Shown here piece by piece: positions 20,306 to 62,077 of a stretch of DNA of 64,000 nt (positions are counted from its first letter, which is position 1; every line of letters begins with the position of its first letter). The translations under genes and the position numbers were made by a program. The stretch is from contig JAUCBJ010007179.1 in assembly GCA_032718475.1 (NCBI GenBank), positions 62,001 through 126,000 of the forward strand, in the 5' to 3' direction. Origin of the DNA: Nemertoderma westbladi. Taxonomy: Eukaryota; Animalia; Xenacoelomorpha. The notes under the pieces were generated by a model. It was not told the DNA's origin and made no database searches. It saw only the letters and a list, made by a program, of their open reading frames with translations.

Positions 20306-20400
20306 TAATTCATGCTAAAGTAAAAAGAGGGTCTAATTGGCTAATATAATTACACAATACAAAGTAAACATACATACAAACAACCATTTCATCTCATTGC
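20306..20400. mobile_element. 95-bp insertion with 12-bp TSD (probably a 5'-truncated retroposon tail)
   Basis: TAACATTTAGTC at 20294-20305 and 20401-20412; interrupts the LINE endonuclease after GGTAIYAKNGLNV. Confidence 0.7.
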
Positions 20401-28087: not shown

Positions 28088-29329
28088 TGTAAAAGCTTCT
28101 GTGGGATATAACTGGCCCCTTTTGCTTCGCAATCCAGTTTCCCCCAGGCGCTGGAATACTCTAAAAAGGTTTTCTAACTGTATATATATTCCCCTCGCCC
28201 GCAAGGTACCTTTACAGGTGTTTTAACGGACATAAAAATCATTCTGCTATATACGTATTTTGGCGGACATGGTAAGGCAAAAACTTGTAATGCACCAACT
28301 ACCTTTCACAGCTTAGCCGTGATGATTCATATTACGACATCTAGCAGCTGGTTGCTGACATGGAAACAGCCATTGGACGCGTGGTTCTTTGTTTGGCTTG
28401 GGCCAATCAGGGCGGTTTTTCCTGTCGACGTGTAGCTTTTAGTCGATCATAAGGAGAGTGTTCAGTCTTACTGCTTTTACTTGATACTTTGTTGTTATTG
28501 CTGTCTAAGCCAGAAACACCGGCTTTTTGGTAAGAACTCTAGTAAACTGCTTAGATTATAGAAAGTATAACTGTTACCGGCGGCGGTGTTACCTCACTTA
28601 ATTTAACTGCACTAATCATATTGTTTGTACTGCTATTTACCGTCAGTTATTAATTGTATCTATTTGTTGATGGAAATATTGCTCTTTGGAGAATACGGAT
28701 AAATCACCCAAAATTCCCAATTTTCTTGATACACTACAGGTTAGAGAGGCGGGCTATATATAACAATTGCGATTTATATCAATGTGGTGTGTATTGAATC
28801 TAATGTTATTTAGTAGACACTACCTGAGTCAATTGCTGTTCTCTTTATGTGTGATCAAATATACTGACGGTCGGCAGAATAGTGTGCATGATTGTGAGTG
28901 TGATGTGACTGGTAACAAAGCATTTCCTAAAGAATGCGACTTATACTTTAATCATAAGCCTTATCGTTGCGTTTAGTATAAGTCCTAGCTCTGTTTAAAT
29001 AGATAGAGCGCCACGTCCTAAAGGAACTGTTAATATTTCCCGAAAGTTAATAATATCTGTCAGAAATTACATATTACTGTATTAGTGATCTATCGAATAA
29101 TACAATAGGTTTACACTGCAACCTTACACTGCAATAATAAAATCTAAGCATCCGAATTCAGCCTCCCGGGTGTAGATCCATCGGGTGAATGATCGCGCAT
29201 GGGCTGGCTTCGGCTAATGTTTTGTTTATTAGCATAAAATATTGTCGTATGCTAAAGGTGTGTTAATTAACTAAAAGACATATAAATTTTGGCAGGTTAA
29301 ACTGCTAAAGGTCTTCAAAAGCGCGAACA
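28088..29329 (+). repeat. 5' LTR of element 1 (1242 bp, TGT...ACA)
   Basis: No differences from 37702-38889 spotted by eye. End placed by homology to the TSD-defined end of element 2 (AAAAGCGCG(A/T)ACA). Confidence 0.9.
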
Positions 29330-29339
29330 GTAACAGTTA
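29330..29339 (+). promoter_or_regulatory. Non-tRNA primer-binding site of element 1 (GTAACAGTTA)
   Basis: Abuts the LTR, has no TGG, and is the perfect reverse complement of LTR positions 28568-28577 (TAACTGTTAC). Confidence 0.7.
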
Positions 29340-31604: not shown

Positions 31605-34600
31605 ATGTCTGACACAACACAAACATTGTCAGATAGTCTCTTAGAGGGTTTTAGAATGAGTCGTCGACTTGGACAGTGTCTTGAAAGGAGAGAAGACAGA
31701 AAAGCGGCAGAGGCAGTGGCAGAAGCAGAACGGAAGACGTCTGAAGCGACTATCCAACTAGAGCTGGAAAACCTTCAGGCGAAACAAGATTACTTGAAGA
31801 AACAAACCAGAAGACTACCTGTGCCCAGTAGGACTGTTCCCGAGTCCGAACCCGTCCTGGACGCCGAGCGAGGTATCAAGAATTTATCGCCCGTCGTCTC
31901 TCGCTCGCCCGCTACTACGTTGGCGACTCCCGCTTCGGCGGTTGAGTGGGTAGCTGAGGGACGACGGGAGATGGGTCTCCTGCTCGAGCAGCTGAGGGAA
32001 CACTGTTTGCGCTCCTCTCAGCAGGTCAGGGAAATGGAAGAGACGGTTCAGCAGCTCAAGGGAACAGTAAGGGAAAGTAGGTTAGAGTTGCAAAAAGTGC
32101 AGCAAAGTATCGCACTAGAATGCGACAAATTAGTCAACCTACAAAAGGGAATACCAATAACCCCTGTAACAGTGTGTCAGCCTGTTAGGTCTGAAGTATT
32201 ACATGCGCAAGGTGTGGAGCCTACACGCATCTATACTGCTAGTGAAGTAGAAACTCCTATAGCAAACCCTATTAAGGGTGATTATACGCCTGTTGTTAAT
32301 GACATTCCCAATAGACTTGATAATAATTCGAGAAATTTATATACCGATAACTCGATATTCAATAACACGATGGCCCAAGAAAGTTTTACGCGTCAAATGG
32401 CTAGAACCGAAGCCCGTCAAGCGGTAAAGGTTGGAGAGATAGTCAAGTTCAATGGAGATGAGATGAAATGGTTACCTTTTAATGAATATTATAAAGATAA
32501 CATACAGAACTCTGTGTTATCCAACGGAGAGAAACTTAGATTCCTCATCGAGTGCTTGGAAGGACCTCCCAAGTCAATGGCGTTAAAATTTATTGGACAT
32601 CCAGATGGATTAAGACAAGTTTGGGATACACTAAACATCAGGTATGGTAATAGGAATAACATAGCTAGGTATTTATATGCGAAATTAATGGCCCCCCGAA
32701 AGTTTCTTAGCAGCGGGATTATAGAGTTTTCCGATGAGATTCAGGAGATCTGTAGACAACTAGATTGGTTAGGTAAGTCTCATGAATACCAGAATTCTAT
32801 GGTTGTAGGAGCCTTAGCATCTACTTTGCCCAAGGGTGGAGTAGGTACACGCTGGGACAAGAAGGTGTTATATACGATGGAACAACAACAACGAGACCCT
32901 ACCATGGCTGATCTCATGTCATTCTTGGATGGCGAAGTGAAATTACAACTCCTAAAGCAATCCAGAGAGAAAACACCGGAAAATAAGGTAAGTGAGAAAC
33001 CCGTTTCTAGGAGAAGAGTAACACCGGTGTGTTATACTGATGACGGCGAAAGCCAAGCTTCTCAAGAAGAAGACAGCGGGAAAGACACCGAGAAATTTTA
33101 CTATGTTAACAAGACCTCAAAGGACGTAAGTAAATCTAAAGCTCGAACCCATGACAGGAGAGAACAGGTTGCTAAGACTCCTCTTCAGTTTCTTCAGTTT
33201 CCTAACAGAGTACACGGAAGAAAGCCCGAAGAAAGAACTAGAGTGCATAACGTCACCCAAAATAAGGCGAGTAACATTAAACCCAACTGTGCGCTGTGCG
33301 ACGGGCCCCACCGTTTGAGTGTGTGTGCGGAATTCCTAAAGAAATCCCTTGTAGACAGACGTACAGTTGTGTGGGACAAGCGGTTATGCTATAATTGCCT
33401 CAGACGCGGACACCAGCGGCGAACCTGTTACTCTGACATAAAGTGTGCAAAGTGCGGTGCGAAACATCACATCTTGTTACAAAGTGAATTCGAACGAAAC
33501 AGCCCGAGTCAGGTAAGTGAGCCCAAATCACATGTCCAATTCAGTGATGAGAACGACACTGACCAAAGTTCTGAGTGGGAAGGATTCTATACGGACGAAT
33601 TCTCCGACGCCAACGAATCCTGTTACCTAATAAATACCGCAGTGTATCGAGCACTTACTTACGAAAAAGACACCACCAATGAGTTTCCCCCAACTACTTT
33701 TGACAAACCACCATCTTGGAAAACTCCAACTTCCAATGTAGGAATCAGAGAATTTCCTGTAGTGCAGGTAAGAGTTCACGGTCCCAACAAAAGTTACATA
33801 GTGAACGCACTCCTTGACTCCGGCAGCACAGGAACATTCATCGATCAAGAACTAGCCGAAGATATCTTTGCTGGACAACCCAAATTCCAAACTAAGTTGA
33901 ATATGTCCGGAATTATGCAGGTTTGGAAATCTACCATAACGGCAGATTACTATGTAGGTGCGTTGTCCACCCCCCAGGATAAATTAGGAGCACAAAGTAT
34001 AAGGTCAGTAAAAATGGTGGCTATAAAGAACTTCGCTACTACCCAAGCAGACCTTTATAATTGGGACGAGGATGAGAGCATCCAACATCTTAAGATACCT
34101 CGATTCCAGACGGATTATCCTGGAGTGCAAATACTTATCGGCCAAAACGCGCACGAGGCGCTCGAGACATTGGAAAAACGACCTGCTCAACCGCAGCCAC
34201 TACAAACCTATGCGGTAAGAACTAGAGTAGGTTGGTACTTTACTGGCCCTTCCCGCAGAACTCTCGAAGAGAGACTACCATCAGAAAGACTATACCAGAT
34301 AAATGGTTTGGAAGTGGAGAGCAGTGAAGTGGACGAACTAACTGAGGGAACACCATACTCCTCAGATAATGACGATATTAACTCCAATGAAGATCAATGG
34401 AGACATCGCCCCGAGATGATTAATCTAGCCGACATCGCTTCCAGAGGAGCGACTCCTCAAGAACGGATAGATACTCCCGGCTGGTTAGGTGGACCCGACT
34501 CCCTAAGTAAAGAAGAAGATGAATGGCCTCCTCATCTTATCACGGCGGAGAGTAGACAGGCCAAGGGAGCGGAGAAAGTAACACGACAACCCAATCACCC

Positions 34601-34721
34601 AGCTGGTCGTTTATGTTTACTGGAAAGAGACCAAAAACTGTCCGGAAACTATGGAAGGCAAGATACTCTTCCTACGACCACTTCCCTAATCCGACAAATA
34701 TCTAGGGACTCCATAACGTAA
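31605..34721 (+). CDS. gag: Gag-protease polyprotein (1038 aa) with short in-frame remnants of the RNase H-end and integrase-end regions
   Basis: KFNGDEMKW (DUF1759-like), three Pao Cys-His knuckles (CALCDGPHRLSVC, CYNCLRRGHQRRTC, CAKCGAKHHILL), protease LLDSGSTGTF, then fused DQWRH..ADIASRG and GRLCLLE pieces. No stops. Confidence 0.9.
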   Translation: MSDTTQTLSDSLLEGFRMSRRLGQCLERREDRKAAEAVAEAERKTSEATIQLELENLQAKQDYLKKQTRRLPVPSRTVPESEPVLDAERGIKNLSPVVSRSPATTLATPASAVEWVAEGRREMGLLLEQLREHCLRSSQQVREMEETVQQLKGTVRESRLELQKVQQSIALECDKLVNLQKGIPITPVTVCQPVRSEVLHAQGVEPTRIYTASEVETPIANPIKGDYTPVVNDIPNRLDNNSRNLYTDNSIFNNTMAQESFTRQMARTEARQAVKVGEIVKFNGDEMKWLPFNEYYKDNIQNSVLSNGEKLRFLIECLEGPPKSMALKFIGHPDGLRQVWDTLNIRYGNRNNIARYLYAKLMAPRKFLSSGIIEFSDEIQEICRQLDWLGKSHEYQNSMVVGALASTLPKGGVGTRWDKKVLYTMEQQQRDPTMADLMSFLDGEVKLQLLKQSREKTPENKVSEKPVSRRRVTPVCYTDDGESQASQEEDSGKDTEKFYYVNKTSKDVSKSKARTHDRREQVAKTPLQFLQFPNRVHGRKPEERTRVHNVTQNKASNIKPNCALCDGPHRLSVCAEFLKKSLVDRRTVVWDKRLCYNCLRRGHQRRTCYSDIKCAKCGAKHHILLQSEFERNSPSQVSEPKSHVQFSDENDTDQSSEWEGFYTDEFSDANESCYLINTAVYRALTYEKDTTNEFPPTTFDKPPSWKTPTSNVGIREFPVVQVRVHGPNKSYIVNALLDSGSTGTFIDQELAEDIFAGQPKFQTKLNMSGIMQVWKSTITADYYVGALSTPQDKLGAQSIRSVKMVAIKNFATTQADLYNWDEDESIQHLKIPRFQTDYPGVQILIGQNAHEALETLEKRPAQPQPLQTYAVRTRVGWYFTGPSRRTLEERLPSERLYQINGLEVESSEVDELTEGTPYSSDNDDINSNEDQWRHRPEMINLADIASRGATPQERIDTPGWLGGPDSLSKEEDEWPPHLITAESRQAKGAEKVTRQPNHPAGRLCLLERDQKLSGNYGRQDTLPTTTSLIRQISRDSIT

Positions 34722-36334
34722 TAACATATGGAGTGGGTGTGTGACTATATCATTTTATATTTGTTTTTATTTTATATTTATGTATGTATTATTATGTACT
34801 TTATTATAATCGTTTTATTTAATTTTATTTAGTGGAATGTTATTTAGATTATTTAGTAGATTAGTGCAATATATTAGTGTTTATTACGTAATTACATAAT
34901 ATATCTAGTGCGACGGCGAGAAATAATTCTTTTCTCTTTCCTTACTGTCCGTGTTATATTATAAATGCGAGACTATAGTAAGATGACATGTCCGTACTTC
35001 TTAAAGTACAATAAAGCCACTACTATATTTAAGTATTATTGGTAGGCAGAGTATTAGGAATGCAAAGTTCAGATCCTCGTGTCTCGGCTAAACCAAGCTC
35101 TGGGTAGACCTTGGAAACGACTTGCCTCTTCACACTGACATTGCTTCGTGCGATATTGCTCTTCTACCTTATAACAAATAATACATATAGTAGCGTGATG
35201 TCCCTCTAACAGTAGCGTAAATCGCAAATAAAGCTGTTAAACTTTTGACCATCTGTAATTCTAGTCGATTAAGATATCGTGGCACCCACCGATATACTTG
35301 AAAGACATATTCTAGAATCAGTGGTTAACGTCCCCAGACAAGTTCTGGAATAAATCGGTGCCCATCCAAAATATTAATTTAATATTTATTAAAATCTGTA
35401 AAATTCCGATCCTTTAAAATTTCTAGTCAATTAAGATATCGCAGCACTTACCGATACTCTTAAAAAGACAAATTTCATAGAATTCAGGATCCTATGTCCC
35501 CAGACCTGCTCTGGAATCAAATTGTGTCAATTTTAACATCAAATAATAAAATTCACGGGAATAAATTTAAATTCATATTCAAATGAATTTCATAAATTGT
35601 CATTTTGTGCAATTTACAACATTCCCAAAATTCCAGTAATTAATAGATCATGGGAGCGGAGATTCATATTGAGTGTACTAGAGTGTGAGAATCTCCAACA
35701 TATAGTCAATAGCCGATAAAATTTATAAAATCATGCATAAAGAGGATATTGACAAATTAAAGAATTACTATTAAATAACATCCCAGATCTGTATACATGA
35801 GAATTGCCCTAATTCTACCGCTAGTTTTCCATAATGTCACCATGGCAACACCCACGCTAGAATTAGAAGCAAGTTAAAGGAACAATAAAAGCTTGCCCCA
35901 TTGCGTAGCATAAGAGTATACATAGCGCACTATTAGTATCCAAGGATACATAGTAATAACGTGACATTCTGGAAGACACTGACTAACGGACAAATGGCAT
36001 GCATGTGTGCAGTAAGTAATGATTGTATGGAATTTGTGCGTTTATAGGTGAATGTTACTACTAAAGTGTGTTTACAGTAGCTAATCGCAATTGTAAAGTA
36101 GCCCTAACTCTACCGAGATAACCTCAAGTGGAATCAAGCCTTTGGGACGGACAGTGGTGGGACTTGTGTCGATTATCGTTGTCGTGCTGTTGCTACATGT
36201 TGGCGCAAACACTGCGACAGCGGTACATCGGCGCTGAGAAACCCACTGTCCGGGGGCAAAAGCCTAGTAGGCAGCGACGCCCGCTTGCCTAAAATATTAA
36301 CTTATATTGATATTAATAAACTCAGATAACAGAT

Positions 36335-37623
36335 ATGACGGAATTGATAGAAGATGACCTTGGTATCAGGGAGCGATATACTCTACCTTTACAAGCGTTT
36401 GTGGATAGCTTGATACGCGGTGAAGCCGATCCGACTATTACGGAGGACGATGGTCGTTATATCGAACCGCCGATGTCCCAGGAACAACTTACGCGTGAAT
36501 TGGACTATAGAAAATTCACCGCTCGCTATACGAATCGTAATGGTACGTATATGGACTTCTTAACTACTGGCCATCCTATCGATTTACATGATACGGACGA
36601 TGTAGACACCGAAAGGGAAATGGTTCTATTTAAATATCATACCCAGCGGCGTCGTAACGATAAACCGAGAATAGATCACGAAAATTCTATTCGTAACAGA
36701 CTGGGAAGACGAACCAATATGTCTAGAATCTGAGGAGATTCAGCCTATCGCGCTCGGAACAGCGACAACGATTACATCCTAGAATGGTATCAAAGTCCAC
36801 AGTGTCTCACTGCGTACGATTATCGCCATGCCAACTATGTTTCTCGGCAACGTTGTCGGTTATGCGCATCGAGAGACCATGTTACGCCCATGGACACAAA
36901 CGTCCGCTGTTCCTATTTCCACGAACAACCGGCGATGGAAATTTATTGAGCGTATTGCAGATTTAATAATTTGCATATTTTTGCGGTTTGCCCTCAATTT
37001 ATGACTCAATGTCACCACTGTCCACTAAAGGGACACGCCAGTTTCGATTGCCCTTTTAATCGCGATTTGGAAAGCGTAGATGAAATGATCACACTACGTT
37101 ACATTAGAGCTTGGGAAGCGAACGCTGATTTACATCGTGATTCGCGCCATCGCTATTATCCTGGACGCGCTTACGAAGGAATTTATGCGTTCCATCCTTA
37201 TCTATTCGCTTCTGTCGAACAGAAATCACGCATATCGAGTTACAGGAAGTATATCGATGGCCTTACGAGTACCGAGCCCGCGAACGCGAGTTGGAAAAAA
37301 CCATTAAACCAAGGAAGTTTCTAACTGCCTATGGTCCACCCACGGCCCTCATTCAGACCACTCGTAAAGGACCCGTAAGAGCGGCTGTCTTGAAACGAGC
37401 TCTCAAAGCCGTTAGACCCCTCTCCCCCGACGTTGATGTCAATCAACTCGGCACTTCGACTGGCGGATACACCGACCATAATCCTATACCCTCTGATGCA
37501 ATCATGTTGCACCCTTCACCCATGAGTTATAGCCCTCCTTGTAAAGTGGCTCGCCCCAAAGAGAAAAAGACTCTGGCTAGCTTTAAAAAACTGCGTAAAC
37601 GCCGTCCGCGCATGAAAGACTAA
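36335..37623 (+). pseudogene. Deleted and frameshifted remnant of ORF3
   Basis: Matches the N-terminus (56478-56850) joined to the C-terminal part (59645-60726) of element 2 ORF3. The exonuclease region is missing; several frameshifts and a stop. Confidence 0.9.
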
Positions 37624-37701
37624 CTGTTTAGAGTATTTTCGTATTTGAGAAACTGTGATTTTGTATATTTTATAGACTTAAATCCCATTTTCTGGGAGCG
37701 G

Positions 37702-38889
37702 TGTAAAAGCTTCTGTGGGATATAACTGGCCCCTTTTGCTTCGCAATCCAGTTTCCCCCAGGCGCTGGAATACTCTAAAAAGGTTTTCTAACTGTATATA
37801 TATTCCCCTCGCCCGCAAGGTACCTTTACAGGTGTTTTAACGGACATAAAAATCATTCTGCTATATACGTATTTTGGCGGACATGGTAAGGCAAAAACTT
37901 GTAATGCACCAACTACCTTTCACAGCTTAGCCGTGATGATTCATATTACGACATCTAGCAGCTGGTTGCTGACATGGAAACAGCCATTGGACGCGTGGTT
38001 CTTTGTTTGGCTTGGGCCAATCAGGGCGGTTTTTCCTGTCGACGTGTAGCTTTTAGTCGATCATAAGGAGAGTGTTCAGTCTTACTGCTTTTACTTGATA
38101 CTTTGTTGTTATTGCTGTCTAAGCCAGAAACACCGGCTTTTTGGTAAGAACTCTAGTAAACTGCTTAGATTATAGAAAGTATAACTGTTACCGGCGGCGG
38201 TGTTACCTCACTTAATTTAACTGCACTAATCATATTGTTTGTACTGCTATTTACCGTCAGTTATTAATTGTATCTATTTGTTGATGGAAATATTGCTCTT
38301 TGGAGAATACGGATAAATCACCCAAAATTCCCAATTTTCTTGATACACTACAGGTTAGAGAGGCGGGCTATATATAACAATTGCGATTTATATCAATGTG
38401 GTGTGTATTGAATCTAATGTTATTTAGTAGACACTACCTGAGTCAATTGCTGTTCTCTTTATGTGTGATCAAATATACTGACGGTCGGCAGAATAGTGTG
38501 CATGATTGTGAGTGTGATGTGACTGGTAACAAAGCATTTCCTAAAGAATGCGACTTATACTTTAATCATAAGCCTTATCGTTGCGTTTAGTATAAGTCCT
38601 AGCTCTGTTTAAATAGATAGAGCGCCACGTCCTAAAGGAACTGTTAATATTTCCCGAAAGTTAATAATATCTGTCAGAAATTACATATTACTGTATTAGT
38701 GATCTATCGAATAATACAATAGGTTTACACTGCAACCTTACACTGCAATAATAAAATCTAAGCATCCGAATTCAGCCTCCCGGGTGTAGATCCATCGGGT
38801 GAATGATCGCGCATGGGCTGGCTTCGGCTAATGTTTTGTTTATTAGCATAAAATATTGTCGTATGCTAAAGGTGTGTTAATTAACTAAA
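37702..38889 (+). repeat. 3' LTR of element 1, lacking the last 54 bp
   Basis: Matches 28088-29275, then joins satellite directly. Preceded by PPT-like TGGGAGCGG at 37693-37701. Confidence 0.92.
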
Positions 38890-43224: not shown

Positions 43225-44497
43225 TGTAAAAGCTTCTGTGGGATATAACTGGCCCCTTTGCTTCGCAATCCAGTTTCCCCCTAGGCGCTGGAATACTCTA
43301 AAAGGGTTCTCTAACTGTATATATATTCCCCTTGCCCGCAAGGTACCGTTACAGGTGTTTTTAACGGACATAAAAGTCATTCTTCTATATACGTGTTTTA
43401 GCGGACATGGTAAGGCAAAAAACCCGCAATACGGCAAATACTTTACACAGTTTAGCCGTGATGATTCAGATTACGACATCTAACAGCTGGTTGCTTAAAT
43501 GGAAACAGCCATTTTACGCATGGTTCTTTGTTTGGCTTCAGCCAATCAGAGCGATTCTCTCTGTCGATGTGGAGCTTTGAGCCGATCATACTGGGATTGT
43601 TCAGTCTTACAGTTTTTTACTGATACTTTGTTGTTATTGCTGTCTAAGCCAGAAACAACGGCTCGAGAAAGAAACATTAGTAGGCTTAAATTATAGAGCG
43701 TATGACTGTGATCAGTACACAGTCTAATTCACGGCACAATTTGGACACTTAACATATCACTGTATATATCTGTTCATATCATATCTTAACCTACCGTCTT
43801 AATATTTTTACTGTTGTTATTATTTTATATCAGTTGATTGAAGATTATTTGGAGAACGTTTATAAAGAACCCAAATTTCCCAATTTTCTTGATACACTAC
43901 AGGTTAGAGAGGCGGGTTATATTTATAGCGATTGCGACTTATATTATTGTGGTGTGTATTGAATTTAATGCTATTTGATAAGCACTACATTGGTCCGTTG
44001 CTATTTTCTTTATATATGATAAAATTCATTGACGGTCGGCAAGTTAGTGAGCAGTATTTTGTGTTACCGGTAGTGTGCATGATTGTGGCTGATAACTAAG
44101 CATTTCCTAAAGAATGAGCCTCATACGTGAATCATAAGCCTTACCGACTTACCGTTGTGATTAGTGTAAGTCATATCTCTGTTTACTTAGATAGAGCGCC
44201 ACGTCCTAAAGGAACTGTTAATATTTCCCGAAAGTGAATAATATTAGTCAGAAATTATTTATTAACGATCAATCGAATAATACAATACCGTAAGCTTCAC
44301 TGCAATAATAATCTAAGCCGACAGAATCCAGTCTCCCGGGATTATCCAGCGGGTGAATGGACGCGCACTAGGCTGGCTTCTGCTAATGTTGTGTTTATTG
44401 GTATTAAATATTGTCATCTTCTAGAGTCGATTTATAAACCAAAAGACATATAAATTTTGGCAGGTTAAACTGCTAAAGGTCTTCAAAAGCGCGTACA
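43225..44497 (+). repeat. 5' LTR of element 2
   Basis: About 8 substitutions versus 60805-62077 counted by eye. CCAAT at 43542 and Inr-like TCAGT at 43601 are conserved in element 1. Confidence 0.95.
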
Positions 44498-44508
44498 ATA
44501 ACAGTCAT
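44498..44508 (+). promoter_or_regulatory. Non-tRNA primer-binding site of element 2 (ATAACAGTCAT)
   Basis: Abuts the LTR and is the perfect reverse complement of ATGACTGTTAT at 61282-61292 (3' LTR). The 5' LTR copy at 43702-43712 has one mismatch. Confidence 0.72.
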
Positions 44509-44563
44509 TGACTTTATTGCAGTAAGCAATAAAGTTGAAAGTACCGATCGACCGGTAAACCTG

Positions 44564-44690
44564 AACCGGTACTTCTGTAGGTCAGTAGGCCCAACTGCCA
44601 GAACCGGTACTGCTGTAGGTCCGTAGGTCCAACTGCCAGAACCGGCACTTCTGTAGGTCCGTAGGCCCAACTGTCCTAACCGGTACTTCC
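44564..44690 (+). repeat. 38-bp tandem repeat x3.3 in the element 2 leader
   Basis: AACCGGTACTTCTGTAGGTC(A/C)GTAGGCCCAACTGCCAG repeated; about one copy in element 1 at ~29483. Confidence 0.85.
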
Positions 44691-46731: not shown

Positions 46732-49700
46732 ATGTCTGACACTCAGCAAAACCTGTCAGATAGTCTAATCGATACAACCATCTGTGACACAGATAGGAGT
46801 GTGGAGCGATTAAGAAAGGAGTTCAGCTCACCTCCTACTGAGAGAAAGGTCATTCCCCCACCAGTAGTATCAGACCCTAGGCTAATCCAACACCGTAGGT
46901 CTATCATCGGCACTCGGGCCCAAGTCAAACGGAACCAGGAAGCAGCTGTTCCACAGCAGCAACAGCCTAGTCAAGAAACTTGTTCCCAGCGATCCGATAG
47001 CTCCAGTAGTTCGGATACTGTCGAGCTGACCCCCGAACGCGGATTGCAGATGGCGGCTACAGCCTACTCGGACCCTCTTCTCACCCTTCCTGCCGCAGTG
47101 CTAACCACTATATTGATTGCGGTGGAGGAACATCAAGCAGATTGGGCGAGGAATAAGAAAGCGACCCAAGATAATTATGCGGGATACGCCAGGGAAGAAT
47201 TGATGTCTATTGTCGAGTCACAATGGAACTTTCCCGGACCTGGACTCCCATTAGATCTGTCCGAAGCTACTTGGGAAGATATACACCGGATGGGAGTGAC
47301 TAAAGATACAATGGATCCAGCTGTTTGGAAGAGGTCGGCAGCAGGATATGTGCAAGGGTTCTTCGGCTCCTTAGAGCGATTAGAAGAACAACTGTTTCGA
47401 CAACCCCAAGGACCTCAAGAGCAGGAAGAGCTGCTATATCAAGTGCGCGAAAGAACCCTACGCATTAGACTAATTCTGTCAGCCTTTGAGGAAACTTCCA
47501 AAAGAAGACAGGACACGTCGCTGCAGGTTTCTGTTAAGACCTGGTTCCAGAGGGTAGGTCGCAAAGTGCAAGAAACGAACCAGTGGAAATCCCAGCTGTC
47601 TGAGAGACTAACTTATGAAGAACCAACCGATGCCACCCTTTCTGAAGTGGAAAGCGAAGAGACCGCAGAGAGACCACGAACGAGAGACGCCATCGACATT
47701 TACCTATCCGACTATCAGCGATTCTTAGGAGACGAAGAGTTGAGATGACGACTGTCTGGACTTTCCCCTAATAGTGAAGGAACCCAGCGTGTGTTAGACT
47801 CAATCGACGCTGAAATGTTGGCGGCTAATCAAGCTGAATTTGATGAAAAACTCCGCCTCACTAGAGTTCAAGAAGAACAAGTAAAGAAAAGGAGGATAGA
47901 GGACCAAAGGGCAGCGGCAATCGCAGAAGCCGAAGCAGAAAGAAAGGAGGCAGCGGCAAGGGCAGAAGCAGAAATACAAAGAAAGGCGGCCATGGCAGAA
48001 GCAGAAATACAAAGAAAGGCAGCGGCGGCAGAAGCAAAGGCGGCCATGGCAGAAGCAGAAGCAAGGGTGGAAAAGGCAGTAGCGGAAGCAGAACGGAGAG
48101 CGTCTGAGCAGACTACCCAACTGGAGTTGGAAAAGCTGCAAGAGACGCAAGATAACATAAATAAACAGTTAACTGCTAGTCACATGCAAATGATGAGAAA
48201 ATCTACTCCCAAACGCCAGGGCTATACTTCATCAGAGGAAAGCGAAACCACCGATCCTGAAGGCGGAGGAAATAGATCTCGTCTAAGCAGGCGTAGAAAA
48301 ACATCTTACCGTCACAAATTACCTGATTTGCCCCCAGCTGTTAAAAGACAACTAACTAGCACAGACTTAGGTAGTGCAGAACCCATAGAACAATTTATCC
48401 AGGTCAAAAGACTCCCTACTATAGTCGATGAGCCTGAAATAATTAGGCCTGTCGTTCCCAAAGTCACTCCTGTGCTAGAGACCCCTGCACTTCCAGAGCT
48501 TAACTCTAAATTCCCTTTACATAGTACTACACTGCCTGTACCCGGTGGAACAGTCCATGCAAATACCCCTGTCCTGAGCATTGAGAGAGGAATCAAAGAT
48601 TTGTCTCCCGTCGTCCCGCGTCAACCCGCTACAATGTTGGCGACTCCCGCTTCGGCGGTTGAGTGGGTAGAGGAGGGACGGCGGGGGATGAACCTCCTGC
48701 TCGGACAGATGCAGGAGACTGTCCACCAGCTTAAGGGAACAGTAAGGGAAAGTAGGGCAGAATTGCAAGAAGTGCAGCAAAGTATCGCACTAGAACGCGA
48801 TAAATTAGTCAATATACAAAAGGGCATACCAATACCCCCTGTAACATTGTGTCAACCTGTTAGGTCTAAAGTATTACATGCGCAAGGTGTGGAGCCTACA
48901 CGCATCTATACTGCTAGTGAAGTAGAAACTCCTATAGCAAACCCTATTAAGGGTGATTATAGACCTGTTATTAATGATATTCCCTATAGACCTGATAATG
49001 ATCCGAGAAATTTATATACCGATAATTCGATATTAAATAACACGATGGCCCAAGAAAGCTTTACGCGGCAGATGGCTAGAACAGAAGCCCGCCAAGCGGT
49101 CAAAGTGGGAGAGATCGTCAAATTCAATGGAGATGAGATGAAATGGTTACCTTTCAACGAATATTACAAAGACAGCATACAGAACTCTGTGCTATCTAAC
49201 GGAGAGAAACTTAGGTTCCTCATCAAGTGCTTGGAAGGACCTCCCAAGTTAATGGCGTTAAAGTTTATTGGACATCCAGAAGGATTAAGACAAGTTTGGG
49301 ATACATTAAACATCAGGTATGGTAACAAGGATAACATAGCTAAGTATTTGTATGCAAAATTAGTAGCCCCTCGACACTTCCTTAGTAGCGGGATTATAGA
49401 GTTTTCTGATGAAATTCAGGAAATCTGTAGACAATTGGACTGGTTAGGTAAGTCTCATGAATATCAGAGTTCCATGGTTATTGGAGCCGTAGTCTCTACT
49501 TTACCAAAGGGTGGAGTATGTACACGCTGGGACAAGAAAGTGTTGTACATGAATGAACAACAACGACGAAGTCCTACCATGGCTGATCTCATGTCCTTCT
49601 TAGATGGTGAGGTAAAACTACAACTCATCAAGCAGTCCAGAGAGAAAACATCGGAAAATAAGGTAAGTGAGAAACCCGCTTCTAGGAGAAGAGTAACACC

Positions 49701-52700
49701 GGTGTGTTACACTGACGACGGCGAAAGCCAAGCTTCTCAAGAAGAAGACAGCGGGAAAGACACCGAACGATCTTACTATGTTGACAAAACCTCAAAGGGC
49801 GTAAGTAAATACAAGGCTCGAAACAACGATAGGAGAGAACAGGCTGCCAAGACCCCTCCTCAGTCTCCTAACAGAATGCGCGGGAGAAAGCCCGAAGAAA
49901 GAACGAGAGTGCATCAGATTACCCAAGGTAAAGTAAGTAACATAAAACCTAACTGTGCGCTGTGCGACGGGACCCACCGTTTGAGTGCGTGTGCGGAATT
50001 TCTAAAGAAATCCCTTGTAGACAGACGTACAGTTGTGTGGGACAAGCGGTTATGCTATAATTGCCTCAGACCAGGACACCAACGGCGAACCTGTTACTCC
50101 GACATAAAGTGTGAAAAGTGTGGCGCGAAACATCACATCTTGTTACATAGTGAGTTCGAACGAGACAAGCAGAGTCAGGTAAGTGAGTCCGAACTACATG
50201 TCCAATTCAGTGATGTAAATGACACTGAGCAGGAGTCTGAGATGGAAGGATTCTATACTGACGAATTCTCCGACGCCAACGAATCCTGTTATCTAATCAA
50301 TACCGCAGTGTATCGAGCACTTACTTACGAAAAGGACACCACCAATGAGTTTTCCCCAACTACTTTTGCCAAACAACCATCTTGGAAAACGCCAACTTCC
50401 AACGTAGGAATCAGAGAATTTCCTGTAGTGCAAGTAAGAATTCATGGTACTCACCACAGTTACATAGTGAACGCACTCCTTGATTCCGGCAGCACAGGAA
50501 CATTCATAGATCAAGAATTAGCCGAAGACATCTTTGCTGGACAACCCAAATTCCGGACAAAATTGAATATGTCAGGAATTATGCAGGTATGGAAATCTAC
50601 CCTAACGGCAGATTACTACGTAGGTGTGTTGTCCACTCCCCAGGATAAGTTAGGAACACAAGGTATAAGGTCGGTAAAAATGGTGGCTATAAAGAACTTC
50701 GCTACTACTCAAGCAGACCTTTATAATTGGGACGAGGATGAGAGCATCCAACATCTTAAGATACCTCGGTTCCAGACAGATTATCCTGGAGTGCAAATAC
50801 TCATCGGCCAAAACGCGCACGAGGCGCTCGAAACATTGGAGAAACGGCCTGCTCAACCGCAGCCACTGCAAACCTATACGGTAAGAACTAGAGTAGGTTG
50901 GTACTTTACTGGCCCTTCCCGCAGGACTCTCGAAGAGAGAATGCCACAAGAACGAGTAGATCATGTGAGCGATTGGAGCGAGGAGAGCAGTGAGGTGGAC
51001 GAACTAACTGAGGGAACACCATACTCCTCAGATAACGATGACACTTATCAACTCTTCGATGAGGAGAACACCATAGACTTACTTACAGAAAACCAAACTT
51101 GGAAAGATCAGGTGAACCTATGTCAACTGATTCACCCATCGGAACCCATCGCTTACAATGACGAACTCAACGATGAGATAGAGCGCTGCAACGCTAGAAC
51201 TCGGGACGAACTAGCCGTACGATTCTTTACTCAGGAACTTGTAGAGCCCAATTCGTATGATAAGGCTCTATCGATAGAAGAAGAAAGAGCCAAGCAAATC
51301 CAGGAAACAACTACACGTTTTTTAAAAGACCAAGGTAGGTATGAAATCGGCCTGCCATTTCGAAAACGAGAACCTAGATTTATAAATAACAGACCCTTGG
51401 CAGAGAAAAGAATCGCTCAATTACATCGACGCCTTACAGCTAATGCTTCAGCGAAAGAAATGTACCAAACTCAGCTGAAGAAATTTATAACAAAGGGATA
51501 CGCGGAGCGAGTACCGGAAGGAACACCAGTGACTGAGAGAACGTATTACTTAACACATCATTACGTTCCCAAACCCGGTAAGCCCCATGAAGTACGAGTC
51601 GTATTCGATGGCTCTGCTCTATATATGGGCCAATCCCTTAATTCCGAGTTGTTACCAGGACCCAATTTACTCCAATCTTTGTTGGGAATACTTTTGAGAT
51701 TAAGACAGTATTCCATCGCGTTCGCTTCCGATATCTAAGGAATGTTCTTACAAGTCAAGGCGCTGGAGAGAGATAGAGACCGCCTGAGATTTCTGTGGTG
51801 GCCTGAAGGAGACCTCAACCAGAAACCGGTAGAGTACTGGATGACCATCCAGGCTTTTGGGATCATATCTAGCCCTTCCAACGCCTGCTCCATAGTGCGA
51901 ACCACTGCGAATGACAACAGAGATTCCTTCTCAAAGGAAGTGATAGACAATATAAAACGTAATATATACATGGACGACAATTTAAGGTCCCTTCCATCAG
52001 TAGAAGAAGCCATAGCTGTCGCAAAAGGAACGGTAGAGTGTTTGAAAAGAGGTGGATTTCGACTAACGAAATTCACTAGCAACTCCCGTGAGTTTCTGGA
52101 AGCCATACCGGTAGAAGACCGCGGAGCGAAAGATCTAGACTTAATAAAGGATGATCTTCCTGAAACCAAGACGCTTGGCTTGAAGTGGGACACTGAAAGA
52201 GACATCCTGTTTTTTCAGTTAAAACAGCGAGATAATCCAGTTCGGACCAAACGGATTTGTTTAAGTATCCTGAGCACTTATTTCGACCCATTGGGATTCA
52301 TTAGCCCAGTTATATTGATTGCTCGGAGTTTAGTACAACAAATGTGGCTTGAAAACCAATCATGGGACGATCCGCTTAAGGGAGAATTGTTAAAGAAATG
52401 GATGAAATGGGAAGATTCTCTACCTGCCATCGAGAACTTTATAATTTCCCGTGCATATTTTGGCCATGTTCTTCCTACGTATTCCTATCAACTCCATGTG
52501 TTTGGAGACGCCAGCGACATGGGAATAGGTATAGTAGCATATCTGCGAGTCGAAACTCCGGATGGAATCAAGGTCGCCTTGGTTACCTCTAAGGCACTGA
52601 TTAACAACAAGTTAAAGGTTCCTCGAGCGGAGTTAAAAGCGGCTTTATACGCTACAGCCATCGGCCGGAACGTAACGGAACAAATCGATTACCCACTGGA

Positions 52701-54852
52701 GAAAACGGTTTATTGGACCGACGCTTTACTCGTGTTGGAATATCTAACCAATGAAGTCTGTCAGTTCAGTGTTTTTGTTAATAACAGGGTAGCTATTATT
52801 CTTAGTCGCACAAAGATAGATCAATGGAGACATTGCCCTGGTACGATTAATCCAGCCGATATCGCCTCCAGGGGAGCAACTCCGCAGGAACTGATAGATA
52901 CTCCAGATTGGTTGGGTGGACCCGACTTCCTGAGCAAGGAAGAGGACGAATGGCCTCCTCACCTTACTACGGCGGAAATTAGACAAGCCAAGGGAGCGGA
53001 GACCGTCAAACCTAAAACCCGGGCGAGTAAATCGAAGTTATTTAAACCGACTATCGATCTATCTGTATTACATGTTTCCGGAAACGATGATTTGGATCCA
53101 CAATCCCTCGCTATAAATAAGTCTGTTGCGGAAATTCGAGATAGAGATTGGAAATCTGGAATACCAGACGTCTCGCAAGGAATCTCACCCCTGCTGCAGA
53201 GAGCGATGCATCACTACAGTTCCTGGAATCGGCTCTGTAAAGCCGTCACATATTTAAAGAGATGCTTTCATCATCAATACTCCAGGATGAAGACCACTAG
53301 TGATAATGCTCCATTGACATCTGCACAAGTTCATGTTATTAAAAACTTACCTAAATATAAGGTATCTGACAGTTTTCTAAAGGAGAAAATTAGTCACCAG
53401 GAGCATGAAGAGACCAATAAACAGATACTGAGACTCCTGCAATGCTATGAGGATTCCGAAAAGTATTTCCTGTTGTTGAGAAATCCGCAGATGCGCTTAA
53501 GGGATCGATTCTCTAGCACAATGATAGATGGGTTAATACATGTTGGAGGAAGGCTCACCAATGCACCCTTATCCTTTGACACTAAATTCCCCATACTCAT
53601 TAGAAATCTTGAAGTACAAATCAAGATGATTGTAGATGTTCACAGTAAGCTTTATCATGCTGGAAGAGAACGAGTTCTTAGCGAAATTCGAACTCGCTAT
53701 TATTTTGATAAACCCCGTAGAGCTCTGAACCAAGTTCTTAGGAACTGCATACCCTGTAGGAAAGCATTCAGTAGGCCTTTAACACAGCGAGAGGCAGAAT
53801 TACCTAGGGAACGAGTAAGCTTCTATGAACCACCTTTTACTAATACTGGTGTAGATTTATTTGGCCCTATTGAAGTATATCGTGCGAGGACTATAGTCAA
53901 GAGATGGTGTGTCATCTTCGTGTGCATGACTTGCAGAGCCATCCATCTCGATATGGTGAACGATCTATCTACCAACAGTTTCGTCTTAAGTTTACGACGA
54001 CAGATCGCTCGCTTCGGTACGAGTAATACCATGAGATCGGACAAGGGAACGAACTTCATTGGTGCCAACAACGAAATACAGGCTTACGTAAAGGACTGGA
54101 ACCAAAGACAGGTGGATGACCAGCTAAGGATAACAGCGTCTAGCTGGACCTTCAACGCCGCCGACGCCCCTTGGTGGGGAGGAAGTTGGGAGAGATTAAT
54201 TAGAAGTGTTAAGACCGCATTTCACTTTATAGTGCCATGCCGTGCGTATCTCACTGACGAACTTTTGCGGACGTTAATGGAGGAAATAGCTGCCTATCTC
54301 AATGAGAGACCGCTTATGCCAGTCTCATCGAGTCCCGATTCCCTGGAAGCGCTAACACCTGCGCACTTCCTACTGAAGAAACCGGTAGCCATGCTCCCAC
54401 GATCGGAGATTGCCGACGGAGACGAATACTGCCGTCGAACTTGGCAACTTTTGCAGTTGCTATCCCGTCGTTTCGCTGACCATTTCGAGAAACATTACCT
54501 GCCCACGCTACAACTTCGAACTAAGTGGTTTGCGCAGCAAGAAAACGTCAGCGCCGGAGATATGGTATTTATTGTAGATCCAGACCTCCCACGTAAACGG
54601 TGGCAGACAGGTCGTATCATCGAGACCCATATCTCGGAGGATGGTTTAGTGCGTTCAGTAGAACTCATCGTTATGCGGCGTAACTTCAAGAAGCCCGGCA
54701 TAATCTTTGAGACGCAACAACTCAATCGCCCAGTTGGTCGTTTATGTTTACTGGAAAGAGACAGAGAACTCTCCGGAAACTATGGAAGGCAAGACACTCT
54801 TCCCACGACCACCTCCCTAATACCTCAAACATCTAGGGACTCCCCAACGTAA
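46732..54852 (+). pseudogene. gag-pol: Single Gag-Pol ORF (~2706 codons) with two in-frame stops (47746-47748 TGA, 51736-51738 TAA)
   Basis: ORFs 46732, 47791 and 51742 share one frame. Gag knuckles; PR LLDSGS; RT VRVVFDGS, GPNLL, SDI*GMFLQV, YMDD at 51967; RNase H FDPLG, HVFGDAS, PRAEL, YWTD, NPADIASRG; IN H-x4-H..CIPC, GVDLFGP, RSDKGTNF, GSWERLI; DUF5641-like tail. Confidence 0.95.
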
Positions 54853-56477: not shown

Positions 56478-59400
56478 ATGACGGAGTTAATAGAAGATGA
56501 TCTCGGTATTAGGGAGCGATATACTCTACCTTTGCAAGCATTTGTGGATAGCTTAATACGCGGTGAAGCCGATCCAACCATTACGGAGGACGATGGTCGT
56601 TATATCGAACCGCCGATGTCCCAAGAGCAACTTGCGCGTGAATTGGACTATCGAAAATTCACCACTCGCTATACGAATCGTAATGGTACGTATATGGACT
56701 TCCTAACGACCGGCCATCCTATCGATTTACATGATACGGACGATATAGATACAGAAAGAGAAATGGTTCTATTTAAATATCATACCCAGCGGAGTCGTAA
56801 CGATAAACCGAGAATAGATCACGAAAATTATATTCGTAATAGACTGGAAAGAGAAAACGTTGAAGAACCGGATAAACGCATCGACTTCAACGAATACTTA
56901 GAGTTTTTGAGAGAAACCTATCTCAACGTCGCTAGTCAGCAGAACTTAGAGACTCGATATCCTCAAGGTATCCATCACGACCCTGTAGTAGAACTCAAAC
57001 GGCTCTATTTCACTATGATGTATCTTACCGCCGATCGTCCACTACCTGTTATCCCGGATAGTTTTGAACAAATGGAAGAATACTGCAAAACTGGAGAACG
57101 ATCACCCGCGTTTCCTTTACAGGATGTGCGTCTTTGGTATTATTGCGACGAATGCCCTAGACCCAACCAACAAATTGAAAGACATAAACATCCACGGAGA
57201 CGTTGCGCTAAACATAGTTTTACGCGTTACACTTACGGGAGTTTCGAGCGAAACCTGTTCGACGTACCGCCCACGATCGCTCGTCTTAAACGATCACTGA
57301 ATAAACCCATGATCAGAGTTCCGGAATACTCGGTCAGGCCTCCTCATTCCCTAGTGAGACCTCAAACTCTTGATCCTAACAGTATCACTGATCCTCCCGA
57401 ACTATATTCCCTGTTCAAAGACTTAGTGTTACCCGAACAATTAATCGGTGGCGCTCCGGTAGTGGGTTCGTTAGACATCCGCCCATCCTACTTAGCCGGA
57501 TTGGGACGCGGGCAGCTAATATCACCCTTTGATCCTTACAATCGTCCAGGATTAAACCCGATACAACCCGCTACGGAAGTCGAGGAGAGCGTTATAAGAA
57601 ATGCTTTAGACGCCATTTGACAGAAAATCGGAAAGGGAACACAAGATTGTTTAGAGAAACGTAAATTACAACAACAAGTCCAAGCGGTGAAGGAGTTAGC
57701 CTTACCACAGTTCGATAGAGAAATCCGAAACCTCGAGGAAGACATCGAGCTTGGACGCACGTATTCTCTCCAAGAATTCTTAGATGAACGCTTACAGAGA
57801 CAAGCGGAAGAAATTCTACTCGAGGAGAAACACACGAAACTGGAAGAAAGAGAAGAAGCCGCTTTAGCCCAACCTGAAGCTCAAATCCTCATGACGGACC
57901 TCTACTCTAAAACCGTTCGTCATCCCTCTATGATTCCACATTTCGGAGACAAGCTCTTCGCGACGATACAACCTCAACCGGTTGATATCAGTATAGGATC
58001 GCAAAATATTATCGCTGACGCCCCTATGTTACAGCGTCCGCCGATCGAGGCCGCTCGTGTTGACGGTATACTCGTTGAACCTCCGGACAATCGAGCGGAT
58101 CTTGTCCGTCGTATGGTACACGATGTCAACATACGCGCTAGACCTTTACAGAACTCGTTTTACGGGATTAAAGACCACCCTTATTACGTTAATCTGACTC
58201 AATATTATATGGTAAAACCAGAAGACCCGACACATGATTTAAAGTTTCTACCACTAATAAATCCTCTAGACATTGTCGAACTCGAACAATTGCAGAAACA
58301 TCTGGATCAGTTAGTAAAGGTAAACTCATTTAGAAAACCATATAACATTTCGCGAATCGAGAAAGATATAGAAACTCCTTATAACCTCGATGGATTTATT
58401 AAAACTCGATTAGTCCATTGGAATCTAGATGTATTATTTGAAGAAGAGAAAATACAAAGATATGGAACTGTGGAGACGTATACCACTCGGCATATGAAGT
58501 ATAGGGATCTCCCTGACGCTAACCAATGCGCCACCTTGTGGCATCCAGTAGGGATGACCCTAGAGAACGCCACCAAGGAGTGGAATGAAACTCTTAATGT
58601 TATCGAGATGTATGGAGTTGTCACCTACGATAATGAAGGTAGCGTTCCGGTCGGAGAGCTAGGAACTACGCGCATGATCCACATCCGCGGATTAGCTGGT
58701 TCTACCCACGTGTTTACTCGAGCGTGTTCCGACTTGATTGATTATTCTTTTGAAACTCTTACCGAAACACAAAAGAATCTCCGACATGGACAATTCGAAC
58801 TCGCGCAGCGTTACGTCATTGACACCGAACGCAAACCGGCCATGGGCATCGATGGATCGATGTTACCCCAGCCCGTACTCGAGATGTTGTTCAACGAAAG
58901 AATCCTTAAAATCGGCTCAGCTGTTTATGGAGATCTCCAAAACGACTTTCGGAATATGGAGGACATTCCATACCCTTTCGTTGATACTCAGCTGATTGCT
59001 CCCTGGGCAGAAGGTCGAGGTTTCTTCCGCACCATGTATGCTAATACGTCTAGCAACATTACCAAGGTGCAACGGACTTCCATCGGACATCTTGCCTTTC
59101 AGGAATACGGATGGAATTTCAAAGTCGGAAATCCCGTTAACTATCAACAAGTATACGGAGACCATTATTCTCGATTATACTTTGATGGACCATTGACCGC
59201 ACCTGGCGCCGTGTATAGCTTCATGAGTGTTCCACTCCGTCCCTCCTTAGCTATATACCTTTGAAAACACCGCACTTGCCGGTTGGCTAGCCGATGTGTG
59301 CAGTCGTACCATACGCGCCCATCCATTAATACTTGGGACCAAACTCGATAAACTAGATGAACATAATAAATTCATTCGTTTCGAATGTTTCCGGCGATTT

Positions 59401-60726
59401 TTAACCCCGTTCCGCAACGTGGATAGCCAATTTAAAGACCGCGCTTTGACCAAGCTCAGCCTAAGAGACTCAGCTGCAGAGAAGTTGGATAGCGCTGGAT
59501 TCGCCATTTTCCAGGAGATTTGTACATCGAACCTGCACTCCTCTGTTCTACAAAGACCTCGAATCCCCACCGGTTATTCTGTCGTAGAAATTCAGACAAT
59601 AGGTCCACCCGAGGAGACAGACACGCCCACCTCATCTATGCACTTAGAAGATGAACCAATATGTCTAGAATCTGAGGAGATTCAGCCTATCACGCCCCGG
59701 AACAGCGACAACGACTATATCATCGAATGGTATCAAGGTCCACAGTGTCTCACTGCGTACGATTATCGCCATGCCAACTATGTTTCTAGGCAACGTTGTC
59801 GGTTATGTGCATCGAGAGACCACGATACGCCCATGGATACCAACGTCCGCTGTTCCTATTTCCAAGAACAACCGACTATGGAAATTTATTGCGCATATTG
59901 CAGACTCAATAATCTGCATATCTTTGCGGTTTGCCCTCAATTTATGACTCAATGTCACCATTGTCAACTAAAGGGACATGCCAGTTTCGACTGCCCTTTT
60001 AATCACGATTTGGAAAGCGTAGATGAAATGATCACACTGCGTTACATCAGAGCTTGGGAAGCGAACGCTGATTTACATTGTGATTCGCGCCATCGCTATT
60101 ATCCCGGACGCGCTTACGAAGGAGTTTATGCGTTCCATCCTTATCTATTCGCTTCTGTTGAACAGAAATCACGCATATCGAGCTACGAGTTACTGAAGCG
60201 CGTCGGAGAATGTATTTCAACTAAATTTGTACGCAAATTTCTCAGGAGTGTTAATCCTAGCGACCTTCATTCCTATAACTTAATCAATTATATCCGTCAG
60301 GATCCAGACTATGGAGACTTGTTTGTTAACTCACACCCTGAGTTACAGGAAGTATATCGACGGCCTTACGAATACCGAGCCCGCGAACGCGAGTTGGAAA
60401 GGACCATTAAACCCCGGAAGTTTCTAACTGCCTATGGTCCACCCACGGCCCTCGTTCAGACCACACGTAAAGGACCCGTAAGAGCGGCTGTCTTGAAACG
60501 AGCTCTCAAAGCCATTAGACCCCTCTCACCTGACGTTGACGTCAATCAACCCGGTACTTCGACTGGCGGATACACCGACCATAATCCTACACCCTCTGAT
60601 GCAATCATATTGCACCCTTCACCCAGGAGTTATAGCCCTCCTTGTAAAGTGGCTCGCCCCAAAGAGAAAAGGACTCTTGCTAGCTTTAAAAAACTGCGTA
60701 AATGCCGTCCGCGCAAGAAAGACTAA
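56478..60726 (+). pseudogene. ORF3 (~1415 aa when repaired): unknown N-terminus, coiled coil, DEDDy-type 3'-5' exonuclease fold, triple CCHC zinc knuckles, basic tail. One in-frame stop (57618-57620) and one frameshift (~59260)
   Basis: ORFs 56478 and 57687 are in the same frame. Motifs VVTYDNEG, LPQPVLEMLFNERILKIGSAVYGDL, FVDTQ, SIGHLA, PLT-x5-Y and CHHCQLKGHASFDC. Element 1 fuses the N- and C-terminal parts, consistent with a single gene. Confidence 0.82.
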
Positions 60727-60795: not shown

Positions 60796-60804
60796 TGGGA
60801 GCGG
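60796..60804 (+). promoter_or_regulatory. Short polypurine-tract-like plus-strand primer site TGGGAGCGG
   Basis: Directly abuts the 3' LTR in both elements. Confidence 0.65.
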
Positions 60805-62077
60805 TGTAAAAGCTTCTGTGGGATATAACTGGCCCCTTTGCTTCGCAATCCAGTTTCCCCCTAGGCGCTGGAATACTCTAAAAGGGTTCTCTAACTGTAT
60901 ATATATTCCCCTTGCCCGCAAGGTACCGTTACAGGTGTTTTTAACGGACATAAAAGTCATTCTTCTATATACGTGTTTTAGCGGACATGGTAAGGCAAAA
61001 AACCCGCAATACGGCAAATACTTTACACAGTTTAGCCGTGATGATTCAGATTACGACATCTAACAGCTGGTTGCTTAAATGGAAACAGCCATTGGACGCA
61101 TGGTTCTTTGTTTGGCTTCAGCCAATCAGAGCGATTCTCTCTGTCGATGTGGAGCTTTGAGCCAATCATAGTGGGATTGTTCAGTCTTACAGTTTTTTAC
61201 TGATACTTTGTTGTTATTGCTGTCTAAGCCAGAAACAACGCCTCGAGAAAGAAACATTAGTAGGCTTAAATTATAGAGCGTATGACTGTTATCAGTACAC
61301 AGTCTAATTCACGGCACAATTTGGACACTTAACATATCACTGTATATATCTGTTCATATCATATCTTAACCTACCGTCTTAATATTTTTACTGTTGTTAT
61401 TATTTTATATCAGTTGATTGAAGATTATTTGGAGAACGTTTATAAAGAACCCAAATTTCCCAATTTTCTTGATACACTACAGGTTAGAGAGGCGGGTTAT
61501 ATTTATAGCGATTGCGACTTATATTATTGTGGTGTGTATTGAATTTAATGCTATTTGATAAGCACTACATTGGTCCGTTGCTATTTTCTTTATATATGAT
61601 AAAATTCATTGACGGTCGGCAAGTTAGTGAGCAGTATTTTGTGTTACCGGTAGTGTGCATGATTGTGGCTGATAACTAAGCATTTCCTAAAGAATGCGCC
61701 TCATACGTGAATCATAAGCCTTACCGACTTACCGTTGTGATTAGTGTAAGTCATATCTCTGTTTACTTAGATAGAGCGCCACGTCCTAAAGGAACTGTTA
61801 ATATTTCCCGAAAGTGAATAATATTAGTCAGAAATTATTTATTAACGATCAATCGAATAATACAATACCGTAAGCTTCACTGCAATAATAATCTAAGCCG
61901 ACAGAATCCAGTCTCCCGGGATTATCCAGCGGGTGAATGGACGCGCACTAGGCTGGCTTCTGCTAATGTTGTGTTTATTGGTATTAAATATTGTCATTTT
62001 CTAGAGTCGATTTATAAACCAAAAGACATATAAATTTTGGCAGGTTAAACTGCTAAAGGTCTTCAAAAGCGCGTACA
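60805..62077 (+). repeat. 3' LTR of element 2
   Basis: Direct repeat of 43225-44497, followed by TSD ACATG. Confidence 0.95.

Follow-up and report, generated by a model that had tools for sequence, protein, structure and literature searches.

We analysed a window of 64,000 nucleotides from Nemertoderma westbladi (GCA_032718475.1, contig JAUCBJ010007179.1, positions 62,001 to 126,000 of the forward strand; all coordinates below are those of the window). It contains an unusually large long terminal repeat (LTR) retrotransposon of 18,853 bases, here called element B, whose third gene, ORF3, is the subject of this report. The two LTRs of element B differ at 8 of 1273 bases (99.4% alike) and end in TG...CA, and the element is flanked by a 5-bp target-site duplication (ACATG) and possesses a purine tract (Table 1). 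Pfam searches with its Gag-Pol gave matches to DUF1759 (3.5e-12), Peptidase_A17 (5.5e-36) and DUF5641 (2.4e-19). Gag has three Cys-His boxes, and the order in Pol is protease, reverse transcriptase (RT), RNase H and integrase, which is the BEL/Pao type. No Rfam match was found inside element B. The element B family is a young BEL/Pao family; its BEL/Pao nature had already been stated in an earlier reading of the bare sequence, the first-pass annotation.

Table 1. Features of elements A and B in the window.
Feature	Position	Strand	Remarks
ORF3	56478..60726	+	about 1415 codons, in three pieces
N-terminal part of ORF3	56478..57617	+	family not found; first 125 codons strongly constrained
CDEC..H..C..H stretch	57144-57215	+	within the N-terminal part
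In-frame stop	57618..57620	+	private to this copy
Charged stretch, probably coiled coil	57651..57875	+	judged by eye
DEDDy (WRN/EXD-type) exonuclease-like domain	58614..59298	+	ExoI D 58629, E 58635; ExoII D 58932; likely ExoIII Y 59256, E 59263
Frameshift inside the likely ExoIII motif	59249..59262	+	private to this copy
Three zinc-knuckle-like motifs	59797..59994	+	the last is a canonical C-x2-C-x4-H-x4-C
Basic C-terminal tail, nuclear-localisation-like (by eye)	60660..60723	+	
5' LTR, element B	43225..44497	+	TG...CA; preceded by ACATG in 27-bp satellite
Primer-binding position	44498..44508	+	without tRNA-type TGG start; complement in own LTR: 61282-61292 perfect, 43702-43712 one mismatch
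gag-pro-RT-RNase H-integrase, BEL/Pao type	46732..54852	+	one frame, two stops (47746-47748, 51736-51738)
Purine-rich tract before the 3' LTR	60797..60804	+	
3' LTR, element B	60805..62077	+	followed by ACATG and 27-bp satellite
Element A	28088..38887	+	sister copy with open gag-pro; lacks most of pol and the exonuclease part of ORF3; 3' LTR shortened

ORF3 begins with an ATG and spans 1415 codons including the stop, as was first annotated. The highest Kyte-Doolittle mean over 19 residues was 1.21, so that no membrane segment is present, and therefore ORF3 is not an env gene; its N-terminus is acidic (by eye). The lack of a hydrophobic segment had been recognised before, and so had the CDEC..H..C..H stretch and the unassignable N-terminal residues. 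Residues 1-700 gave no match in Pfam, PHROGs or 1.84 billion representative proteins. The earlier picture of a large, non-env, multidomain protein is supported, but it had overlooked the three zinc-knuckle-like motifs and the basic tail at the C-terminus, and it did not mention the in-frame stop and the frameshift. In Atlas, a language-model feature search, the neighbours of the knuckle region were zf-CCHC and Air2-like proteins (score 0.77-0.86; on the tool's own scale a score below 0.9 is a lead only).

The two breaks were compared with contigs from sequencing runs. Seven runs were listed, six with the whole or part of the stretch (four studies); contigs of four runs were compared over ORF3, and those of four runs, three of them the same, over 59175-59275. 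At the in-frame stop, another letter was found at all depth in all four runs. At the frameshift, an insertion or deletion (indel) was listed in 4/4 runs, and the only contigs crossing the break differ from this copy by an indel. In the 59175-59275 comparison, the depth past the frameshift equalled that of the indel-carrying contigs in three runs, and the fourth run had none past the break. Contigs of all four runs thus disagree with this copy at each break, which makes the two breaks private to it; in the family, ORF3 is broken only here. Thousands of contigs matched ORF3 (22,630 in run X1) with hundreds of variable sites, which suggests that the ORF3 family has many copies; rare variants are lost from contigs, whose depth does not measure copy number. 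One run, presumed to be RNA, covers ORF3 as contigs and carries no information on expression.

ORF3 is under purifying selection. In pairwise comparison of elements A and B, the ratio of nonsynonymous to synonymous substitution rates (dN/dS) was 0.07 for the first 125 codons of ORF3 (p 1e-9), 0.13 for 178 codons around the knuckles (p 2e-8) and 0.37 for the last 128 codons (p 0.04), compared with 0.21 for 818 codons of gag-pro. The start of ORF3 is the most constrained part measured. These values show that ORF3 does not evolve neutrally; neutral evolution would have spoken against the proposal of the first-pass annotation. Within 59175-59258, three sites were variable at 2% or more among 788 contigs from four runs, and all three changes were synonymous. 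Among 36 listed sites in ORF3, the changes shared between copies were mostly synonymous (20 versus 4), in contrast to those private to this copy (5 versus 7; Fisher p 0.02); the 36 are 40 of 1394 rows minus three outside ORF3 and the row of the stop, and they are a non-random sample that the tool selected for support. The GC content of third codon positions (GC3) is 0.42-0.44 in ORF3 and 0.43 in gag-pol.

For the exonuclease region, Atlas returned 3'-5' exonuclease clusters (best score 0.88), and the ten best matches with a family all belong to the DNA_pol_A_exo1 family or clan. A full search of 1.84 billion representative proteins found a single homologue, P0002 (E 1.2e-4), a protein of 648 residues encoded on a 9449-base ENA contig. 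P0002 is 31% alike over 112 residues of the exonuclease domain (BLAST) and has a weak PF01612 match (E 0.2). It is shorter than ORF3 and has the same order of exonuclease, linker and CCHC knuckles; the knuckles align with the C-terminal piece of ORF3 and resemble those of retroviral nucleocapsid and Air2. When the pair of ORF3 and P0002 was compared by hhalign with reference domains, the result was 88% for seven bacterial WRN-like PF01612 domains, 90% for all 17 references, 42% for five PolA sequences and 1% for five RNase D-like bacterial sequences, with an alignment that spans the central part of the domain only. The hhalign score was 44.8, compared with at most 22.9 in 30 column shuffles. 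Word-indexed protein searches gave no match for the exonuclease region or the C-terminal piece, and P0002 matched only itself. Nothing meaningful was found in phage, plasmid and PHROGs searches, viral contigs gave 0 matches, and a metagenome search gave two loci, both generic WRN-like proteins. On these profile and motif comparisons, ORF3 very probably carries a WRN/EXD-type DEDDy exonuclease domain. The DEDDy/RNase D assignment made at first sight is supported in its WRN-like part, but the RNase D label was too narrow.

The catalytic residues of EXD2 are D108, E110, D171, Y242 and D246 (PMC6648332, available text), and the site residues of P0002 are D62, E64, D130, Y229 and E233. The acidic residues of ExoI and ExoII, the serine at 59226 and the motifs quoted around them in the first-pass annotation were all confirmed in the sequence. 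When both ORF3 and P0002 were scanned with a block, the position of the ExoII aspartate clearly ranked first. When the whole domains were aligned with a low penalty for long gaps, the ExoI pair (YDNE) fell opposite D62 and E64 of P0002 (SIDVE). YVIDTERKP was rejected as an ExoI candidate, because it lies only about 14 residues before the helix that precedes ExoII and its counterpart in P0002 is not part of the catalytic site.

The ExoIII motif had been placed at PLT-x5-YSFMS, where the expected aspartate is a serine, and an inactive nuclease had been considered on that basis. The serine is indeed the state of the family, as its codon has no variant at 2% or more among the 788 contigs from four runs, but the register is probably wrong. 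In the BLAST alignment, the GPL of that site falls opposite DPF of P0002, upstream of the W-x-x-P-L of P0002, and PLRPSLAIY followed by ENTALAGWLADV (X over the break) tracks PLCHDQLYYIYCENTTIMHLLLDV of P0002. The ungapped score against P0002 was 30 for the downstream register and 1 for the earlier one (25 and 23 columns), and the piece after the break matched the YIYCENT region of P0002 with p 0.0005 in 2000 shuffles. Y229 and E233 of P0002 align with Tyr 59256 and Glu 59263, which stand on either side of the frameshift and 14 residues past the site first proposed. For L139, a canonical WRN-like protein from the metagenome search (Pfam 1e-5), PLRPSLAIY was the best of 232 places; L139 was found with this ORF3 as query and is not independent. 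In the loose ends of diverged contigs, Glu and Asn are retained after the break and the changes are synonymous (by eye). The motif was probably misread because the frameshift falls inside it, and the suggestion of an inactive nuclease depends on a register that P0002 does not support. The predicted site of D-E-D-E plus Tyr is probably complete.

Several results weigh against an active exonuclease in ORF3. The best Atlas score remains in the range of a lead. When the ORF3 protein was searched against Pfam, PHROGs and the sequences of the PDB (to E 10), no exonuclease was matched. AlphaFold models of the ORF3 domain, with X in place of the break, and of P0002 reached a predicted local distance difference test (pLDDT) score of 32 and 30 for lack of an alignment and gave no structural support for the fold; profile comparison by hhalign did recover the family, so that the blank profile and structure result named beforehand as refuting did not arise. 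Taken by itself, the match of ExoI to P0002 lacks significance (p 0.32), and a bacterial ExoI block ranked YDNE third. For ExoIII, a 9-residue test with eight references, one further reference lacking the motif having been dropped, favoured the downstream register in three, tied in one and was worse in four. A bacterial ExoIII block picked neither register, hhalign placed the motif at a third site without an acid at +4, and the register depends mainly on the one homologue P0002. Glu in place of Asp at ExoIII may impair catalysis. The exonuclease domain is also outside the pairwise dN/dS values, as element A lacks it.

In element A, the LTRs are identical across 1186 bases and the gag-pro frame of 1040 codons is open. 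The ends of ORF3 are colinear in element A; a gap of 1.6 kb separates ORF3 from pol and the purine tract follows closely, which marks ORF3 as an integral third gene of the family. Since a joint that skips the same part of ORF3 as is missing from element A (56847 to 59647) was seen in 3/4 runs, a non-autonomous deleted form of the family appears to be spreading. The spacer between pol and ORF3 (54853-56477, 1.6 kb) contains internal repeats. Its divergence between A and B is only 8%, compared with a dS of 0.2-0.3, which suggests constraint or recombination.

BEL/Pao elements usually have a tRNA primer-binding site after the 5' LTR. No such site was found in element B, as judged by the TGG start without matching to host tRNAs. 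Instead there is a self-priming signature: directly downstream of the 5' LTR, element B has 11 bases whose complement lies some 480 bases inside its own LTR and is the only perfect one in the window, and in element A 10 bases (29330-29339) are complementary to 28568-28577 and 38182-38191. Both of the two A-B differences in this complement are compensated (chance about 0.003-0.009). In elements of the Tf1 type, about 11 complementary bases stand at the RNA start; here the complement lies in the LTR, and self-priming of this type would require the RNA to start there. In whole-RNA folding, the value for the primer duplex was 0.86-0.99 or 0.00 in element A, depending on the end point, and at most 0.34 in element B. 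A hairpin of 12-13 bp directly follows the primer site (44508-44538 in B, 29342-29370 in A), with letters changed and pairing kept. We found no report of self-priming in BEL/Pao in the literature searched, whose available text names it only for Tf1/Sushi, Tcn1 and some Copia elements (PMC6317226, PMC5443660, PMC3601003).

Some other features of the window were recorded. The leader of element B (44498-46731) is very long (2.2 kb) and has 38-bp and 288-bp tandem duplications. A 27-bp satellite occupies 21186-28087, 38888-43225 and 62077-64000, and elements A and B both lie inside it in the same orientation. According to the available text of a preprint, Bel-Pao elements occur in metazoan centromeric satellite arrays (10.64898/2026.09.17.752431). 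Targeting of the satellite by the element was rejected as a conclusion, two insertions being too few. Open frames resembling non-LTR retrotransposon endonuclease and RT (by eye) and a 20-bp tandem array are located at 10523-13028 (+), 19712-20935 (-) and 4792-6901.

We tentatively favour the reading, with a probability of roughly 0.4, that ORF3 is an active 3'-5' exonuclease working in trans to counter small-RNA silencing by the host. Because ORF3 lies 1.6 kb after pol, its protein would need a message of its own, probably a spliced one, and would not be made as a part of Pol; separate spliced messages are described as the rule for ORF3s (PMC5408684, available text). If made apart from Gag-Pol and equipped with putative RNA-binding knuckles and a basic tail, the protein would act in the cell and would not be confined to the particle. 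The zinc knuckles would hold the exonuclease on RNA, and the enzyme would chew the unprotected 3' ends of RNA fragments that serve as input to piRNA/siRNA production or to nuclear silencing. These fragments as substrate are a guess, and RNA rather than DNA is likewise presumed. The arenavirus nucleoprotein (NP) serves as a precedent, being a viral exonuclease that suppresses host defence (PMC7968707, 10.1101/2025.09.09.675144, both in their available text).

The exonuclease could also serve the element's own copying, by trimming the 3' ends of the element RNA or of the self-primer, or the ends and flaps of the cDNA, and possibly by proofreading a 19-kb genome. We regard this as somewhat unlikely. 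Selection on ORF3 is as strong as on gag-pro, the nucleocapsid- and Air2-like knuckles of P0002 fit such a role, the self-priming signature would call for a primer with a defined 3' end, and 3'-end processing of element RNA has been proposed for other ORF3s (PMC5408684, available text). For Tf1, though, RNase H suffices to make the self-primer (PMC7175516, available text), and the folding support for the primer duplex is not robust. Copying enzymes are normally located in Pol, and ORF3 is outside it. Element A, which lacks the domain, has moved recently, although it may have been supplied with it in trans. A more daring version, a single-chain machine resembling TRAMP and the exosome that would trim the tRNA-independent self-primer or proofread reverse transcription and so enable a 19-kb element, is improbable.

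A further reading, implied by the first-pass annotation, is a binder of RNA that does not cut, comparable to EXD1, Maelstrom or Egalitarian, which would serve as a decoy, as a transport adaptor or in targeting; inactive DEDD derivatives do act in piRNA biogenesis (PMC5408684, available text). The fixed serine of PLT-x5-YSFMS agrees with this, as does an ExoIII motif that is non-canonical in either register, and both copies of the window lie in one 27-bp satellite. However, the four acids and the tyrosine of the predicted site are present in both ORF3 and P0002, which are only about 31% alike, Glu and Asn past the break persist in the diverged contigs, where the changes are synonymous, and two insertions cannot demonstrate targeting. 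We consider such a binder unlikely, and more so than a copying role. Finally, ORF3 might be a passenger, that is, a captured host sequence, a nested insertion without a role or a chance series of motifs, and the two breaks in this copy and the missing Pfam and PDB exonuclease matches would agree with this. It is already largely refuted and very improbable: purifying selection acts between sister lineages at dS 0.2-0.3, both breaks are confined to this copy, ORF3 and gag-pol agree in GC3, three large protein searches found no host-like close relative of ORF3, and P0002 has the same domain order.

The first-pass annotation was correct that DEDDy ORF3s have been published for bdelloid rotifer retroelements. 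The available text of PMC5408684, on which this comparison is based, describes them in Juno and Vesta LTR retrotransposons and in Athena/Terminon elements, with the motif DEED and without demonstrated activity. Like the ORF3 reported here, they are non-env genes after pol with a DEDDy-type exonuclease, no transmembrane segment and an unproven function, and their invariant residues are intact. They differ in the elements that carry them (Juno, Vesta and Penelope-like elements), in the DEED motif and in having no coiled coil, whereas our ORF3 belongs to BEL/Pao, has a likely D-E-D-E site and CCHC knuckles, and is about 1415 residues long; the two are likened by description, and no match to a rotifer-type DEDDy ORF3 was found among the 1.84 billion representatives at E 0.001. 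Mostly neutral variation is described there for the sequenced env-like and GDSL ORF3s, whereas selection is clear here.

With WRN, EXD2, MUT-7, Nibbler and EXD1 (PF01612), ORF3 shares the order and context of the predicted ExoI, of ExoII (LP..v..ll....i.KiG.....Dl) and of the likely ExoIII. It differs from this group in being below Pfam detection, in carrying insertions downstream of the ExoI strands and upstream of ExoIII, in its likely Glu at ExoIII and in being flanked by other domains. The zinc-knuckle proteins Air1 and Air2 work with Rrp6 in TRAMP and the nuclear exosome. By analogy, ORF3 combines CCHC knuckles with a predicted DEDDy exonuclease and a basic tail; in contrast to Air1/Air2 and Rrp6, its nuclease is WRN-like in profile and both parts are in one chain. 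Arenavirus NP and nidovirus ExoN are 3'-5' exonucleases encoded by mobile genomes, with defence suppression and proofreading of large genomes as models (PMC7968707, available text), but they belong to RNA viruses and to other exonuclease lineages.

We found no report of a DEDDy ORF3 in BEL/Pao in the literature searched, which included few subscription papers, with Repbase/Dfam entries and supplements, where an annotation may exist, outside it. A predicted DEDDy ORF3 is now present in a third retroelement group; here purifying selection is clear, the family is young and has many copies, and a putative RNA-binding module is attached, while the rotifer genes were described without evidence of selection or activity (PMC5408684, available text). 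The tempting reading of a dead enzyme, caused by the frameshift in the likely last catalytic motif, is probably a misreading. The finding bears on the question of whether retrotransposons of animals encode enzymes of their own that counter piRNA/siRNA silencing, and this question becomes testable here, in activity, substrate and location, because the gene is selected, the family is young with many copies and the putative RNA-binding module is attached.

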